Origin: a virus
Lineage: Duplodnaviria; Heunggongvirae; Uroviricota; Caudoviricetes
Direction: 5' to 3' (one strand)
Virus record (IMG/VR): IMGVR_UViG_2657245634_000018
Length of the DNA: 4,019 nucleotides
The position numbers and the translations under genes are program-made. Under the pieces are notes generated by a model that saw only the letters and a program-made list of their open reading frames with translations, did not search any database and was not told where the DNA came from. Each line of letters starts with the position of its first letter. Positions within the stretch are counted from its first letter, which is position 1. Positions 1 to 4,019 of the stretch are shown one piece after another.

Positions 1-159
1 GTAATCAGCAAGCGATATACGCAGCGAATTGAGCGGCATAACCTGAATCTGAGGCAGCACCTGGCACGGCTGGGACGGAAGTCGCTGTCGTTCTCAAAAT
101 CGGTGGAGCTGCATGACAAAGTCATCGGGCATTATCTGAACATAAAACACTATCAATAA
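1..159 (+). CDS. insB: IS1 transposase InsB, C-terminal fragment (5' end outside window)
   Basis: Open frame from the window edge to TAA at 157-159. The stop lies inside the terminal inverted repeat, as in IS1. Absent from the ORF track because it has no start in the window. Confidence 0.85.
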
Positions 160-174
160 GTTGGAGTCATTACC
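152..174. repeat. IS1 terminal inverted repeat (right end), 23 bp
   Basis: Direct match by eye to the IS1 terminal repeat; insertion junction at 174/175. Confidence 0.85.
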
Positions 175-459
175 CACAGTGTTATCGTTTTCTAACACAA
201 TGTGAATATTATCTGTGGCTAGATAGTAAATATAATGTGAGACATTGTGACGTTTTAGTTCAGAATAAAACAATTCACAGTTTAAATCTTTTCGCACTTG
301 ATCGAATATTTCTTTAAAAATGGCAACCTGAGCCATTGGTAAAACCTTCCATGTGATACGAGGGCGCGTAGTTTGCATTATCGTTTTTATCGTTTCAATC
401 TGGTCTGACCTCTTTGTGTTTTGTTGATGATTTATGTCAAATATTAGGAATGTTTTCAA
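175..459 (-). pseudogene. Phage right-arm ORF interrupted by IS1 (95 native codons fused to 26 IS1-derived codons; ORF-track entry 94..459)
   Basis: The minus-strand ORF crosses the IS1 junction: its last 26 residues ([26 protein letters not shown]) are the reverse-frame reading of the IS1 terminal repeat, so its 3' part is not native. Position matches a lambda right-arm ORF that I recall being annotated as a putative envelope protein; that identity is from memory. The track start is TTG with no Shine-Dalgarno; an internal ATG (residue 42) has GGAAGG 8 nt upstream, so the true start is uncertain. Confidence 0.5.
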
Positions 460-621
460 TTAATAGTATTGGTTGCGTAACAAAGTGCGGTCCTGCTGGC
501 ATTCTGGAGGGAAATACAACCGACAGATGTATGTAAGGCCAACGTGCTCAAATCTTCATACAGAAAGATTTGAAGTAATATTTTAACCGCTAGATGAAGA
601 GCAAGCGCATGGAGCGACAAA

Positions 622-828
622 ATGAATAAAGAACAATCTGCTGATGATCCCTCCGTGGATCTGATTCGTGTAAAAAATATGCTTAATAGCACCATTTCTA
701 TGAGTTACCCTGATGTTGTAATTGCATGTATAGAACATAAGGTGTCTCTGGAAGCATTCAGGGCAATTGAGGCAGCGTTGGTGAAGCACGATAATAATAT
801 GAAGGATTATTCCCTGGTGGTTGACTGA
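622..828 (+). CDS. Small hypothetical protein (68 aa) of the lambdoid right arm
   Basis: ATG at 622 preceded by GGAG (611-614) at 7-nt spacing; TGA stop at 826-828. Size and position match a 68-aa hypothetical ORF in the lambda right arm, as I recall it. Function unknown. Confidence 0.6.
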
Positions 829-992
829 TCACCATAACTGCTAATCATTCAAACTACTTAACCTGTGACAGAGCCAACACGCAGTCTGTCACTGTCAGGA
901 AAGTGGTAAAACTGCAACTCAATTACTGCAATGCCCTCGTAATTAAGTGAATTTACAATATCGTCCTGTTCGGAGGGAAGAACGCGGGATGT

Positions 993-1187
993 TCATTCTT
1001 CATCACTTTTAATTGATGTATATGCTCTCTTTTCTGACGTTAGCCTCCGACGGCAGGCTTCAATGACCCAGGCTGAGAAATTCCCGGACCCTTTTTGATC
1101 AAGAGCGATGTTAATTTGTTCAATCATTTGGTTAGGAAAGCGGATGTTGCGGGTTGTTGTTCTGCGGGTTCTGTTCTTCGTTGACAT
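993..1187 (-). CDS. Small hypothetical protein (64 aa), possible ribbon-helix-helix (Arc/MetJ-like) DNA-binding fold
   Basis: Complete ORF, ATG at 1187-1185 and TGA at 995-993. Basic N-terminal arm (STKNRTRRTTTRN) followed by a strand-helix-helix pattern (RNIRFP / NQMIEQINIALDQKG / SGNFSAWVIEACRRRL) like Arc-type repressors. Weak Shine-Dalgarno. Coding status not proven: the N-terminal codons overlap an imperfect 15-bp tandem DNA repeat (1148-1177). Confidence 0.5.
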   Translation of the reverse strand: MSTKNRTRRTTTRNIRFPNQMIEQINIALDQKGSGNFSAWVIEACRRRLTSEKRAYTSIKSDEE

Positions 1188-1356
1188 GAGGTTGCCCCGT
1201 ATTCAGTGTCGCTGATTTGTATTGTCTGAAGTTGTTTTTACGTTAAGTTGATGCGGATCAATTAATACGATACCTGCGTCATAATTGATTATTTGACGTG
1301 GTTTGATGGCGTAGATGCACGTTGTGACATGTAGATGATAATTATTATCATTTTGC

Positions 1357-1363
1357 GGGTCCT
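1357..1363 (+). promoter_or_regulatory. cosQ-like element (GGGTCCT) upstream of cosN
   Basis: Heptamer gggtcct lies about 24-30 bp to the left of the cohesive-end sequence, where cosQ sits in lambda. Exact boundaries are from memory. Confidence 0.4.
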
Positions 1364-1386
1364 TTCCGGCGATCCGACAGGTTACG

Positions 1387-1398
1387 GGGCGGCGACCT
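1387..1398. other. cosN: 12-nt cohesive-end sequence GGGCGGCGACCT (terminase nicking site; junction of phage right and left ends)
   Basis: Exact lambda-type cohesive end, preceded by ...gatccgacaggttacg (right-end type) and followed by cgcgggttttcgctatttatgaaaattttccgg (left-end type). Confidence 0.87.
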
Positions 1399-1440
1399 CG
1401 CGGGTTTTCGCTATTTATGAAAATTTTCCGGTTTAAGGTG

Positions 1441-1456
1441 TTTCCGTTCTTCTTCG
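1441..1456 (+). promoter_or_regulatory. cosB R3 element (Nu1 binding site)
   Basis: tttccgttcttcttcg is related to the R-element repeat found at 1495-1510 and 1536-1551, at the expected distance from cosN. Confidence 0.6.
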
Positions 1457-1457
1457 T

Positions 1458-1492
1458 CGTAACTTAATGTTTTTATTTAAAACACCCTCTAA
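1458..1492. promoter_or_regulatory. cosB I1 segment (AT-rich IHF bend site between R3 and R2)
   Basis: AT-rich tract aacttaatgtttttatttaaaa between R3 and R2 with a partial IHF-consensus match on the reverse strand; boundaries approximate. Confidence 0.45.
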
Positions 1493-1494
1493 AA

Positions 1495-1510
1495 AGAAAG
1501 GAAACGACAG
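1495..1510 (-). promoter_or_regulatory. cosB R2 element (Nu1 binding site, inverted relative to R1)
   Basis: agaaaggaaacgacag is the perfect reverse complement of the 16-mer at 1536-1551. Confidence 0.72.
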
Positions 1511-1535
1511 GTGCTGAAAACGGGCTTTTTGGCTT

Positions 1536-1551
1536 CTGTCGTTTCCTTTCT
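1536..1551 (+). promoter_or_regulatory. cosB R1 element (Nu1 binding site)
   Basis: ctgtcgtttcctttct; forms a 16-bp perfect inverted repeat with R2, directly upstream of the Nu1 start. Confidence 0.72.
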
Positions 1552-1575
1552 CTGTTTTTGTCCGTGGAATGAACA

Positions 1576-2121
1576 ATGGAAGTCAACAAAAAGCAGCTGG
1601 CTGACATTTTCGGCGCGAGTATCCGTACCATTCAGAACTGGCAGGAGCAGGGAATGCCCGTTCTGCGAGGCGGTGGGAAGGGTAATGAGGTGCTTTATGA
1701 CTCTGCCGCCGTCATAAAATGGTATGCCGAAAGGGATGCTAAAATTGAGAACGAAAAGCTGCGCCGGGAGGTTGAAGAACTGCGACAGGCCAGCGAGACA
1801 GATCTCCAGCCAGGGACTATTGAGTACGAACGCCATCGACTTACGCGTGCGCAGGCCGACGCACAGGAGCTGAAAAATGCCAGAGACTCCGCTGAAGTGG
1901 TGGAAACCGCATTCTGTTCTTTCGTGCTGTCGCGGATCGCAGGTGAAATTGCCAGTATTCTCGACGGGATCCCCCTGTCGGTGCAGCGGCGTTTTCCGGA
2001 ACTGGAAAACCGACATGTTGATTTCCTGAAACGGGATATCATCAAAGCCATGAACAAAGCAGCCGCGCTGGATGAACTGATACCGGGGTTGCTGAGTGAA
2101 TATATCGAACAGTCAGGTTAA
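1576..2121 (+). CDS. nu1: Terminase small subunit gpNu1 (181 aa)
   Basis: ORF-track protein MEVNKKQLADIFGASIRTIQNWQEQGMPVLRGGGKGNEV... is near-identical to lambda Nu1 as I recall it (about 4 substitutions in 181 aa). N-terminal helix-turn-helix segment; lies directly downstream of cosB. Confidence 0.97.
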   Translation: MEVNKKQLADIFGASIRTIQNWQEQGMPVLRGGGKGNEVLYDSAAVIKWYAERDAKIENEKLRREVEELRQASETDLQPGTIEYERHRLTRAQADAQELKNARDSAEVVETAFCSFVLSRIAGEIASILDGIPLSVQRRFPELENRHVDFLKRDIIKAMNKAAALDELIPGLLSEYIEQSG

Positions 2122-4019
2122 CAGGCTGCGGCATTTTGTCCGCGCCGGGCTTCGCTCACTCTTCAGGCCGGAGCCACAGACTGCCGTTGAATGGGCGGAT
2201 GCTAATTACTATCTCCCGAAAGAATCCGCATACCAGGAAGGGCGCTGGGAAACACTGCCCTTTCAGCGGGCCATCATGAATGCGATGGGCAGCGACTACA
2301 TCCGCGAGGTGAATGTGGTGAAGTCTGCCCGTGTTGGTTATTCCAAAATGCTGTTGGGTGTTTATGCCTACTTCATAGAGCATAAGCAGCGCAACACCCT
2401 TATCTGGTTGCCGACGGATGGTGATGCCGAGAACTTTATGAAAACCCACGTTGAGCCGACTATTCGTGATATTCCGTCGCTGCTGGCGCTGGCCCCGTGG
2501 TATGGCAAAAAGCACCGGGATAACACGCTCACCATGAAGCGTTTTACCAATGGTCGTGGCTTCTGGTGCCTGGGCGGTAAAGCGGCAAAAAACTACCGTG
2601 AAAAGTCGGTGGATGTGGCGGGTTATGATGAACTTGCTGCCTTTGATGATGATATTGAACAGGAAGGCTCTCCGACGTTCCTGGGCGATAAGCGTATTGA
2701 AGGCTCGGTCTGGCCAAAGTCCATCCGTGGCTCCACGCCCAAAGTGAGAGGCACCTGCCAGATTGAGCGTGCAGCCAGTGAATCCCCGCATTTTATGCGT
2801 TTTCATGTTACCTGCCCGCACTGCGGGGAGGAGCAGTACCTTAAATTTGGCGATAAAGAGACGCCGTTTGGCCTCAAATGGACGCCGGATGATCCCTCCA
2901 GCGTGTTTTATCTCTGCGAGCATAATGCCTGCGTCATCCGCCAGCAGGAGCTGGACTTTACTGATGCCCGTTATATCTGCGAAAAGACCGGGATCTGGAC
3001 CCGTGATGGCATTCTCTGGTTTTCGTCATCCGGTGAAGAGATTGAGCCGCCTGACAGTGTGACCTTTCACATCTGGACAGCGTACAGCCCGTTCACCACC
3101 TGGGTGCAGATTGTCAAAGACTGGATGAAAACGAAAGGGGATACGGGAAAACGTAAAACCTTCGTGAACACCACGCTCGGTGAGACGTGGGAAGCGAAAA
3201 TCGGCGAACGTCCGGATGCTGAAGTGATGGCAGAGCGGAAAGAGCATTATTCAGCGCCCGTTCCCGACCGTGTGGCTTACCTGACCGCCGGTATCGACTC
3301 CCAGCTGGACCGCTACGAAATGCGCGTATGGGGATGGGGGCCGGGTGAGGAAAGCTGGCTGATTGACCGGCAGATTATTATGGGCCGCCACGATGATGAA
3401 CAGACGCTGCTGCGTGTGGATGAGGCCATCAATAAAACCTATACCCGCCGGAATGGTGCAGAAATGTCGGTATCCCGTATCTGCTGGGATATTGGCGGGA
3501 TTGACCCGACTATTGTGTATGAACGCTCGAAAAAGCATGGGCTGTTCCGGGTGATCCCCATTAAAGGGGCATCCGTCTACGGAAAGCCGGTGGCCAGCAT
3601 GCCACGTAAGCGAAACAAAAACGGGGTTTACCTTACCGAAATCGGTACGGATACCGCGAAAGAGCAGATTTATAACCGCTTCACACTGACGCCGGAAGGG
3701 GATGAACCGCTTCCCGGTGCCGTTCACTTCCCGAATAACCCGGATATTTTTGATCTGACCGAAGCGCAGCAGCTGACTGCTGAAGAGCAGGTCGAAAAAT
3801 GGGTGGATGGCAGGAAAAAAATACTGTGGGACAGCAAAAAGCGACGCAATGAGGCACTCGACTGCTTCGTTTATGCGCTGGCGGCGCTGCGCATCAGTAT
3901 TTCGCGCTGGCAGCTGGATCTTAGTGCACTGCTGGCGAGCCTGCAGGAAGAGGANNGNGNANCANGGTGTCATCGTCTGCGTCGCATGTTAAGGTCAGGC
4001 CCACAGTATAAAAGAGAAC
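2096..4019 (+). CDS. A: Terminase large subunit gpA (stop not reached in window; lambda-type similarity ends near 3965)
   Basis: GTG at 2096, 26 nt before the Nu1 stop, opens a frame reading (M)NISNSQVNRLRHFVRAGLRSLFRPEPQTAVEWADANYYLPKES... (hand-translated) and remaining open to 4019. Frame checked at 2096, 2813 and 3941. Carries the lysine-containing segment VKSARVGYSKM near residue 76. Not in the ORF track because it has no stop in the window. About 620 lambda-like codons, then the anomalous tail. Confidence 0.93.
   Translation, partial: MNISNSQVNRLRHFVRAGLRSLFRPEPQTAVEWADANYYLPKESAYQEGRWETLPFQRAIMNAMGSDYIREVNVVKSARVGYSKMLLGVYAYFIEHKQRNTLIWLPTDGDAENFMKTHVEPTIRDIPSLLALAPWYGKKHRDNTLTMKRFTNGRGFWCLGGKAAKNYREKSVDVAGYDELAAFDDDIEQEGSPTFLGDKRIEGSVWPKSIRGSTPKVRGTCQIERAASESPHFMRFHVTCPHCGEEQYLKFGDKETPFGLKWTPDDPSSVFYLCEHNACVIRQQELDFTDARYICEKTGIWTRDGILWFSSSGEEIEPPDSVTFHIWTAYSPFTTWVQIVKDWMKTKGDTGKRKTFVNTTLGETWEAKIGERPDAEVMAERKEHYSAPVPDRVAYLTAGIDSQLDRYEMRVWGWGPGEESWLIDRQIIMGRHDDEQTLLRVDEAINKTYTRRNGAEMSVSRICWDIGGIDPTIVYERSKKHGLFRVIPIKGASVYGKPVASMPRKRNKNGVYLTEIGTDTAKEQIYNRFTLTPEGDEPLPGAVHFPNNPDIFDLTEAQQLTAEEQVEKWVDGRKKILWDSKKRRNEALDCFVYALAALRISISRWQLDLSALLASLQEEXXXXXCHRLRRMLRSGPQYKRE
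3955..3965. other. Cluster of six ambiguous base calls (N) at the point where lambda-type similarity ends
   Basis: N at 3955, 3956, 3958, 3960, 3962 and 3965. The interleaved called bases (g, g, a, c, a) agree with the lambda A sequence I recall; from 3966 onward (ggtgtcatcgtctgcgtcgcatgttaagg...) the sequence does not. Confidence 0.8.

Follow-up and report, generated by a model that had tools for sequence, protein, structure and literature searches.

What does the small open reading frame (ORF) encode that lies beside cos in lambda-like prophages and points away from the terminase genes, and does it encode anything at all? The question was posed by a window of 4,019 nucleotides, the whole stretch of viral DNA analyzed here (IMG/VR record IMGVR_UViG_2657245634_000018). 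A sequence-only reading had proposed that its positions 993 to 1187 encode a protein of the ribbon-helix-helix (RHH) type, with the caveat that a tandem repeat in the same DNA might instead mark a DNA-level element. We therefore consider in turn the position of the ORF, its coding status, the predicted fold of its product, the settings of its homologues and the DNA upstream of them.

The ORF next to cos is a lambda-type member of the YlcI/YnfO family

The window represents the right end of a lambda-like prophage, joined via cos to the head genes (Table 1), and matches prophages in E. coli genomes from 175 to 3954 at up to 100% identity. The match to lambda stops at window position 1386, equivalent to lambda 48502, which places the start of the ORF 200 bp from the cosN nick and equates the ORF with lambda 48109-48303. 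Since nu1 and gene A are carried on the plus strand, the minus-strand ORF is antisense to the late genes, and both its distance from cosN and its orientation are as the sequence-only reading had described them. Positions 1357 to 1363 of the plus strand read GGGTCCT, which we take to be cosQ (lambda 48473-48479, presumably as defined by Wieczorek and Feiss 2001).

Starting from an ATG that is fixed by an in-frame TGA six codons upstream, the ORF encodes a protein of 64 residues, MSTKNRTRRTTTRNIRFPNQMIEQINIALDQKGSGNFSAWVIEACRRRLTSEKRAYTSIKSDEE. This protein is the lambda-type member of the YlcI/YnfO (DUF3950) family: it matched Pfam DUF3950 (PF13132; 71.4 bits, E=5e-20, cut-off 25), the model spanning residues 21-49, as well as NCBIfam YlcI/YnfO (NF041551; 36.6 bits, cut-off 30) and phrog_949 ("unknown function"; E=4e-35). 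The matching gene is named ylcI by PGAP in hundreds of E. coli genomes, and the RefSeq gene order over the matching region (ybcV, ybcW, ylcI, nohD, terminase large subunit) is identical to the layout of the window. The ORF is also annotated in phage O276 and lambda imm21; the lambda reference records NC_001416 and J02459 contain no feature at 48109-48303. The "orf-64" of the lambda record (44621-44815, plus strand) was rejected as a counterpart, being a distinct ORF.

Small proteins at this position had been called uncharacterized in the earlier reading. With respect to function this holds, as the literature on YlcI/YnfO consists of passing mentions and ynfO is still classed as uncharacterized; the sequence itself is already catalogued in databases, as the named family DUF3950 or YlcI/YnfO and often under the gene name ylcI. 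RNA-seq of K-12 lists ybcW-ylcI as a convergent overlapping transcript pair (PMC12288877), and a ylcI homologue is transcribed in O157:H7 (PMC7709258). Our literature search returned no report of ribosome profiling or transcripts for the lambda ylcI ORF.

Table 1. Coordinates of features in the window (position 1 is its first letter)
Feature	Position	Strand	Remarks
IS1 end	1 to ~175		Last 52 transposase residues stop at 156
Truncated ybcV/lambdap78-like DUF1398 ORF	94-459	-	
ybcW/lambdap79 homologue, 68 aa, convergent with ylcI	622..828	+	phrog_657 and annotation
ylcI-like CDS, YlcI/YnfO family, DUF3950	993..1187	-	64 aa; stop at 993-995
Start of predicted helix 2 (codons 37-52), then W40, V41, A44, C45	1032..1079	-	Model and alignment
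N36-F37-S38, predicted cap opening helix 2, near-invariant	1080-1082 (N36, codon 36)	-	
Predicted helix 1 (codons 19-32)	1092..1133	-	AlphaFold2 model; I25 nearly invariant
Basic/polar N-terminal arm and predicted beta-strand N14-I15-R16-F17-P18 (codons 1-18)	1134..1187	-	Extended in model
Imperfect 15-bp tandem repeat, codons 4-13 (NRTRR/TTTRN)	1148..1177		TRF: 2.1 copies, 87% matches, score 46
Weak Shine-Dalgarno-like GGGG, 9 nt before ATG	1195..1198	-	Sequence
AT-rich inverted repeat, 13-nt arms, 85% complementary, 7-nt gap	1257..1289		70-102 nt upstream of ATG
Sigma-70-like match GTGACA-16-TATCAT, -10 inside Fur box	1324..1351	+	10/12, consensus match only
Perfect 7-1-7 Fur-box palindrome TGATAATnATTATCA, ylcI-nu1 intergenic	1336..1350		~150 nt upstream of ylcI
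cosN nick (right end/left end of lambda chromosome)	1386..1387		Linear lambda records end at 1386
nu1 (small terminase subunit), divergent from ylcI across cos	1576..2121	+	Pfam Phage_Nu1 E=4e-100
Gene A	2096 onward	+	

ylcI is a genuine protein-coding gene

The window contains 35 ORFs of at least 30 aa, and the length of the ylcI ORF is not unusual by itself; what lifts it above chance are the family-model matches and purifying selection. To assess the latter, we collected 70 unique coding sequences, at 31-100% protein identity, that come from many genera of Enterobacterales and reside in phages, prophages, satellites or chromosomes. Homologue searches were dominated by frameshifted copies of lambda with many errors, on contigs of ~3.5 kb; these were removed by eye, many contig matches being lambda DNA that contaminates unrelated assemblies. 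In 68 of the 70 sequences the frame was intact, and the two exceptions (L122 and L124) are themselves error-ridden lambda-contaminant contigs; the frameshifts or stops in relatives that would have counted against a gene were thus absent outside these two. Across the conserved core (residues 9-50), the Nei-Gojobori dN/dS ratio was 0.28 in the ylcI frame. The two shifted sense frames gave 1.15 and 1.67, and the antisense frames 1.00, 0.43 and 1.49, with 0.43 found in the frame whose third codon positions coincide with those of ylcI. The synonymous versus nonsynonymous comparison proposed earlier hence came out on the side of a gene. Near-identical copies differed at 7 sites within the ORF, 5 of them third positions, with no indels, and at 33 columns in the cos-side flank, 12 of which were gapped. 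These results identify ylcI as a genuine protein-coding gene.

The 15-bp tandem repeat noticed in the sequence-only reading is present, but 5 of 200 dinucleotide-shuffled versions of the window also reached a TRF score of at least 46, so that the repeat is real and only modestly unusual. If it, a cosQ-like sequence or a terminator were the functional element, the ORF would be fortuitous. Such a DNA-level element would agree with the existence of the repeat, with the likeness of its units to the cosQ context (TTCTGCGGGTTCT versus TTTTGCGGGTCCT), with a terminator-like hairpin on the plus strand and with the absence of the ORF from the lambda reference annotation. However, the terminator-like count is at chance level (1 found, 0.9 expected), the cosQ-like match is within the estimated number of short repeats expected for the region, and purifying selection is confined to the ylcI frame. 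In distant homologues, moreover, the DNA repeat fades while arm length is kept and IRFP persists at codons 15-18 almost everywhere; homologues at 35-60% identity retain protein motif and arm length despite decay of the repeat, and copies of the type found in BP-4795 carry synonymous changes inside the repeat region. The protein features thus outlast the DNA repeat, which is a by-product of coding for a low-complexity basic arm. We rejected the noncoding explanation on the substitution pattern and give it next to no credence, and the caveat falls with it.

The predicted YlcI fold resembles ribbon-helix-helix proteins

An AlphaFold2 model based on a 23-sequence alignment (mean pLDDT 72) consisted of an extended segment at residues 12-18, a helix at 19-32, a four-residue turn and a second helix at 37-63. 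The predicted model therefore has the RHH topology (strand, helix, helix; ~45 residues), with DSSP calling no strand on the single chain. In a clean alignment of 35 sequences, R16, F37, S38, V41 and A44 were invariant and I15, F17 (both hydrophobic strand residues), I25, N36, W40 and C45 nearly so, a pattern of conservation that reads as an alternating strand followed by a capped second helix. Foldseek returned mostly RHH proteins, at ~2 A over 37-42 residues (NikR, Arc, MazE9, ParD2, VapB, MatP, HicB, NikA and pCXC100 ParB), with no match reaching significance.

At the level of sequence profiles, no RHH family in Pfam was matched by the protein at E up to 1, and searches of the PDB with the single sequence and two profiles gave nothing significant. 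The best PDB profile match was to a CopG-family protein (E = 0.4), with helix 1, the loop and helix 2 all aligned in register. The assignment therefore rests on fold and pattern, by which the ylcI product is most likely an RHH DNA-binding regulator. The Arc/MetJ-like layout anticipated from the sequence (basic arm, strand and two helices) was borne out by the predicted topology, by the predominance of RHH proteins among the structural neighbors and by covariation of arm and strand with palindromes in satellite islands, described below.

The family recurs in three genomic settings

Homologues of ylcI were found in three recurrent settings: lambda-type prophages, Stx phages and PICI-like satellites. 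In lambda-type prophages the gene lies between ybcW and cos-nu1-A. One locus, L121, has lambda-like ylcI, 200-bp upstream region, cosQ and cosN next to a Nu1 that is only 35% identical; this exchange of cosB and nu1 assigns ylcI to the module left of cosB. In BP-4795 and JLK-2012-type Stx phages, the packaging module consists of HNH, TerS (Terminase_2 family) and TerL genes that are nonhomologous to nu1 and A, and here too the ylcI homologue, encoded on the opposite strand, is the last gene to follow the lysis cassette before the packaging genes begin; 42 bp separate its start from that of the HNH gene. The same antisense slot thus precedes nonhomologous packaging modules.

The third setting accounts for ~24 of 40 divergent loci, in which integrase, in some cases an AntA/Rha/Bro-N protein, AlpA, an opposite-strand ylcI homologue, a small ORF and a primase-helicase gene follow one another. 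YlcI/YnfO proteins have been listed among the accessory genes of capsid-forming PICIs in Enterobacter (PMC13612085). One PICI-like island with its own TerS and capsid (L166) is inserted in a BP-4795-like prophage, a configuration corresponding to the helper-embedded PICIs described before (PMC10111431). A few chromosomal copies were also observed: one in Tatumella beside a CitMHS transporter and an aminotransferase, one in Salmonella arizonae beside an IpgD-family effector and a C69 peptidase, and one in Pantoea beside a TonB-dependent receptor.

Some proteins combine the DUF3950 domain with a disordered linker and a helical domain. Such fusions form five clusters that are 44-67% identical to one another, one of which occurs on 39 contigs. 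Their helical domain (pLDDT ~94) matches Terminase_2 positions 1-53 and is 62-66% identical to residues 2-54 of BP-4795-type TerS and 53-58% identical to the TerS of the island itself. Rare as it is, with five clusters, this fusion links the DUF3950 domain to DNA recognition at packaging sites. The 64-aa protein of the window matched neither of the TerS families (Nu1/Terminase_2) in Pfam.

Satellite homologues are preceded by palindromes that covary with the N-terminal arm

Within 200 nt upstream of the homologue in 25 island loci, we counted 73 GTG-N(5-9)-CAC sites where 4.2 were expected. Their spacing is nearly always N6, and three or four of these palindromes precede the island gene, at fixed positions near -150, -99, -76 and -30. 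The palindromes are distributed around -35/-10-like boxes on either strand. Reading toward the gene, the typical order begins with site A, separated by 11 nt from site B; site B abuts GTCAA, and after a T-rich stretch come TATAGT, which overlaps site C, a Shine-Dalgarno sequence and the ATG. On the opposite strand, which faces the primase operon, TTGACG reads as the -35 and a TATAAG-like sequence as the -10, with site B lying in the spacer between them and site A at the start point. The inner bases of the palindromes are alike within one locus and different between loci, as illustrated by the L139-type homologue (arm TTKG), with sites GTGCACAAACAC and GTGCATATACAC, and the L140 homologue (arm ATKK), with site GTGCGGCCACAC. 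In a second subfamily (L153 and L154) the palindromes differ and are found at ~-50 and across the start codon.

Among 21 related loci with 13 distinct arms, operators diverged in step with protein residues 4-14 (Mantel test: site B, r = 0.70; site A, r = 0.67; p = 0.0002 for each). The corresponding values were 0.13 and 0.04 for helix 1 and 0.23 and 0.19, likewise weak, for the rest of the protein; first-pass correlations with neighboring proteins were 0.00 (integrase), 0.11 (AlpA), 0.23 (primase) and 0.26 (c4). Linked noncoding DNA also covaries with the operators (r = 0.39-0.55), indicating that co-inheritance contributes to the signal. When the leader between site C and the arm codons was removed in a partial Mantel test, the correlation for the arm was 0.71 (p = 0.0002); that between leader and operator, with the arm accounted for, was 0.07. 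Positions 12 and 14, taken to face the groove, were among those most strongly associated with the operator (r = 0.60 and 0.58), whereas in the island homologues positions 13, 16 and 17 are invariant (including R16) and position 15 (I/V) had no association. Tracking at 12 and 14, set beside invariance at 13, 16 and 17 and the lack of association at 15, is the alternation expected of an RHH strand that reads DNA.

Other interpretations of the island DNA were considered. A P4-type CI immunity RNA was dropped as an explanation of the repeats, as the Rfam C4/isrK models had no match at the gathering threshold across 14 island loci, and none up to E = 1 in the control region of L139. EcCIMP1, a PICI of E. 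coli, has a putative repressor of the PerC/ANR type, which was rejected as a family member (PMC11773190). The island palindromes could also be occupied by another protein.

The upstream region of lambda-type ylcI differs and contains a Fur box

No GTG-N6-CAC site was present upstream of lambda-type ylcI. The whole window contains one, which is the chance level, and lambda contains 11 versus 11.8 expected, without clusters. As the lambda-type arm is different (Arg/Thr-rich), a binding site other than GTG-N6-CAC would be expected here. A ribosome-binding site is annotated in lambda imm21 at the place equivalent to the weak GGGG of the window, and the BP-4795 homologue has a stronger Shine-Dalgarno sequence, GAGGAAAG. 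Within 200 nt we found no convincing sigma-70 promoter for ylcI, the best candidate agreeing at 8 of 12 positions. The AT-rich inverted repeat is conserved among close relatives, whose divergence at this place is too low to be informative, and no Rfam family was detected in the window.

The Fur-box palindrome between ylcI and nu1 has zero mismatches, both in the window and at lambda 48452-48466, relative to what we take to be the 7-1-7 consensus. With two mismatches allowed, a match occurred in 3 of 200 window shuffles. The promoter-like site whose -10 lies inside the box points across cos into nu1. Clusters of strong Fur sites upstream of K-12 nohB and nohA were reported by Chen et al. 2007; the nohA site was verified by gel shift and had been recovered earlier by in vivo selection for Fur-binding fragments (PMC2189734). 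By their coordinates, these published noh regions are the same intergenic regions, and the offset given for nohA (-233) agrees with the distance from box to nu1 in the window. In that study the Fur sites were assigned to the noh genes, with ylcI and ynfO going unmentioned (PMC2189734).

Proposed function and alternative explanations

Taken as a whole, and with the lambda copy included, we consider it reasonably probable that this genuine gene encodes a dimeric RHH DNA-binding regulator acting at a module boundary. According to this proposal, DNA bases would be read in the major groove by the 14-residue basic/polar arm together with the short beta-strand (N14-I15-R16-F17); the core of the dimer would be built from helix 1 (19-32) and helix 2 (37 onward), whose N-F-S cap would contact the DNA backbone. 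The role common to the family would be that of a site-specific regulator. It is always encoded by a lone gene that is antisense to and divergent from the operon next to it: nu1-A in lambda, the HNH-terS-terL genes in Stx phages of the BP-4795 type and, in PICI-like satellites, the primase operon. Satellite homologues would most likely repress the leftward promoter and their own promoter via the three or four GTG-N6-CAC palindromes. The lambda-type copy would have the same kind of activity, as a small regulator produced from a leftward transcript with its start close to cos, expressed probably in the lysogen and possibly in response to iron and Fur. Evidence at the family level, as far as sequence comparison reaches, favors an operator-binding repressor encoded antisense where two modules meet, from which a role in lambda itself would follow by extension.

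A different task is suggested by the neighborhood of cos. As an accessory factor of packaging, the protein would bind near cos and modulate terminase action; it could, for instance, shield cos in the prophage, influence cosQ-dependent termination or adjust how the small terminase binds. The gene is always the last before the packaging module whatever the terminase type, it moves with cosQ and cosN when cosB and nu1 are swapped, five diverged clusters fuse its domain to a BP-4795-type TerS-like domain, and the family is present in capsid-forming PICI-like islands with their own TerS (PMC13612085). The conserved slot and the TerS fusions keep this role alive as an alternative. Yet most satellite copies lie between AlpA and the primase operon and face promoter-like elements, in BP-4795 the HNH gene intervenes before the presumed cos, some members are found beside metabolic or virulence genes without a packaging function, and the fusions are rare (5 clusters), so that we regard an accessory role in packaging, all its forms taken together, as unlikely. 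A role in lysogenic conversion, in which ylcI would be a "moron" regulator made by the prophage, perhaps controlled by Fur and iron, and directed mainly at host genes, is quite unlikely too. The accessory character of the bor/ybcV/ybcW region would fit such a role, as would the perfect Fur box ~150 nt upstream, transcription of homologues in uninduced K-12 and O157, and the transporter, effector and receptor genes adjoining chromosomal copies; against it, there is no known host target, the Fur site has been assigned in print to nohA/nohB on the other strand, and the strict conservation of position near packaging genes would be left unexplained.

Many RHH proteins are antitoxins, and RHH antitoxins (TacA2, Rv0298, VapB12, ParD2 and MazE9) are among the structural neighbors of the ylcI product, which raises the question of a type II toxin-antitoxin pair. 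There is, however, no co-oriented partner: ybcW is convergent and matches no toxin family, and the homologue is a lone antisense gene in satellites and Stx phages as well. PADLOC gave no convincing match for six family members, with a single marginal hit to HamA for the fusion form P0256 (E = 0.0015, 16 bits). An antitoxin was rejected on gene context and appears very improbable.

Implications

A wider interpretation, which taken with all its parts jointly is rather doubtful, would make DUF3950/YlcI an unrecognized class of RHH switch repressors of mobile elements. It would supply the missing operator-binding repressor of Gram-negative PICI and capsid-forming PICI satellites, in which the replication operon would be held off through GTG-N6-CAC sites, with specificity conferred by a swappable N-terminal arm. 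The cos-adjacent lambdoid copy, wired to a Fur-controlled promoter that points across cos, might keep either the cos site of the prophage or its packaging operon (nu1-A or HNH-terS-terL) quiet in the lysogen. In some satellites, fusion of the domain to a DNA-binding domain resembling that of the helper's small terminase might serve to target the packaging site of the helper.

The reference records of lambda, whose genome is among the most studied, omit a conserved and selected gene 200 bp from cos. For DUF3950/YlcI, a domain of unknown function, the probable RHH assignment provides a testable mechanism, with predicted operators and an arm that would determine specificity. It suggests a regulator at the boundary of the lysis and packaging modules in lambdoid and Shiga-toxin phages, and possibly a repressor in Gram-negative satellites, whose control is now attributed to the activator AlpA. 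Since the divergent region is shared with ylcI/ynfO, the question of which genes are controlled by the nohA/nohB Fur site is reopened. The practical gain would be modest unless a phenotype is found.

Comparison with known systems

The closest relatives with names are YlcI of the DLP12 prophage and YnfO of the Qin prophage in K-12, which belong to the same family and share with the window copy the slot between ybcW and the nu1 homologue (nohD or nohA) as well as the orientation. The window copy has D29 where many YlcI copies have E29, and YnfO-type copies differ by another, longer C-terminal tail after about residue 50. Among functionally known phage proteins, Arc and Mnt of P22 are small RHH proteins, each consisting of an N-terminal arm, one beta-strand and two helices and encoded in immI among the late genes; Mnt is transcribed against its neighbors and acts in the lysogen. 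The ylcI product is likewise small with a predicted arm, strand and two helices, and Arc is one of its structural neighbors, but there is no detectable sequence similarity to Arc or Mnt, and lambda has no antirepressor gene next to ylcI. In BP-4795 an ant gene is found ~1 kb from the ylcI homologue, and satellites carry AntA/Rha/Bro genes adjacent to it.

CopG, MetJ and NikR, together with RHH antitoxins (TacA, VapB and ParD), furnished the best structural matches and a sub-threshold CopG profile alignment, and the predicted recognition of a palindrome through the strand is a further likeness to CopG, MetJ and NikR. In contrast to these proteins, ylcI has no significant profile match, no toxin partner and no ligand-binding domain. 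For Gram-negative PICIs, published accounts name the activator AlpA as the controlling factor and do not discuss a comparable repressor (PMC11773190, PMC10111431). The satellite homologue would be a functional analogue of Stl, the master repressor of Gram-positive SaPIs, in that it is a lone gene, divergent from the replication operon, with operator-like sites over both promoters; in fold and size, Stl and the satellite homologue are unrelated. Relative to the known RHH regulators and antitoxins, the 12-bp GTG-N6-CAC palindrome and the long arm of 14 residues are particular to the ylcI family.

Candidate operator sites in satellite islands

In the island loci (L125-L165), three or four GTG-N6-CAC palindromes were found at fixed positions within the ∼200 nt upstream of the ylcI homologue, where they surround divergent promoter-like elements. 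Covariation was seen between the inner bases of these palindromes and the DUF3950 protein's N-terminal arm. Palindromes and protein are thus candidates for a repressor-operator switch in PICI-like satellites of Gram-negative hosts; no discussion of a DUF3950 switch of this kind was found in the searchable literature. Two loci, L153 and L154, encode a distinct DUF3950 subfamily with the N-terminus MQEKK... and the strand IRFED. Its palindromes were located in the region from -52 to -27 (GATGGTAGTTACCATC) and at the start codon, where GGTACCTACC overlaps the ATG.

Elements around cos

A perfect 7-1-7 Fur-box palindrome was located beside cos, overlapping the -10 element of a promoter-like site that is directed across cos toward nu1. 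Fur sites have been published for nohA/nohB (PMC2189734) in the same intergenic region. Since ylcI/ynfO share this region, the question arises which gene or genes Fur controls.

Between cosN and the start of nu1, an inverted repeat of 26 nt was detected, with 85% complementarity and a gap of 5 nt; it probably represents the R elements of cosB, which bind Nu1 and are oriented in opposite directions. The context of cosQ (1350-1363) was resembled by the tandem-repeat units inside ylcI (1144-1172), with 11/13 positions matching (TTCTGCGGGTTCT versus TTTTGCGGGTCCT). By our estimate, chance alone would give enough short repeats of this kind in the region to account for the likeness.

Coordinates of features in the window and in related loci
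Feature	Location	Strand	Remarks
IS1 end	window 1-175		
ybcV/lambdap78-like DUF1398 gene	window 94-459		interrupted by IS1 end
Promoter-like site	window 1324-1351	+	
Fur-box palindrome	window 1336-1350		TGATAATnATTATCA; 7 nt from cosQ
Inverted repeat	window 1495-1551		
Ambiguous bases (N)	window 3954-3965		
Two-domain DUF3950 fusion protein	L166 6001-6363		
Two-domain DUF3950 fusion protein	L170 4714-5103		
PICI-like island	L166 (E. coli CP027459.1) 6400-9800		own TerS and capsid
lambda "orf-64"	L173 (NC_001416) 44621-44815	+	between Q and S
Unannotated 64-aa ORF	lambda 48109-48303		

At the left end of the window, the 52 C-terminal residues of IS1 transposase are encoded, ending at position 156, and homology to prophages in E. 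coli genomes starts at position 175. At the right end (3954-4019), gene A is not continued in the final ∼55 bases; the end of the prophage match at 3954 points to a gap in the assembly or to a junction.

Family members and database pitfalls

After residue ∼50 (window 993-1037), YlcI-type, YnfO-type, BP-4795-type, and other copies carry completely different tails; residues 1 to 50 are >85% identical among copies with differing tails. This divergence suggests that a recombination junction lies inside the gene's 3' end or that the tail is variable and binds partners.

Family members were also found outside phages and satellites (L127, L130, L133, L147, L148, L152, L138, and L123). In Tatumella, the family gene lies between a malic enzyme gene and genes for a CitMHS transporter and an aminotransferase; in Salmonella arizonae/diarizonae, it is flanked by genes for an IpgD/SopB-family effector and a C69 peptidase. 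A TonB-dependent receptor gene precedes it in Pantoea, and cytochrome bd oxidase and NlpA genes flank it in Rouxiella.

Assemblies of unrelated taxa (e.g., Streptomyces, Cohnella, and Flavobacterium) were contaminated with lambda DNA, probably sequencing control DNA. In protein databases, error-ridden reads of this DNA appear as hundreds of false "homologues" whose tails are frameshifted. The contaminant set comprised loci L084-L113, L122, and L124, proteins P0001-P0120, and many of P0121-P0258. The "orf-64" of the lambda record is an unrelated plus-strand ORF of coincidentally equal length and is likely to be confused with the unannotated 64-aa ORF.

Terminase fusions and an embedded island

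Rare fusions combine DUF3950 with a small-terminase N-terminal domain of the BP-4795 type. In locus L166, a second, stand-alone DUF3950 gene precedes the fusion gene on the same strand, and the late region of a BP-4795-like prophage holds a PICI-like island. As judged by eye, a short terL-like 5' fragment adjoins the island integrase gene; the prophage terS is apparently split by a frameshift. This arrangement agrees with the published helper-embedded PICI configuration (PMC10111431).
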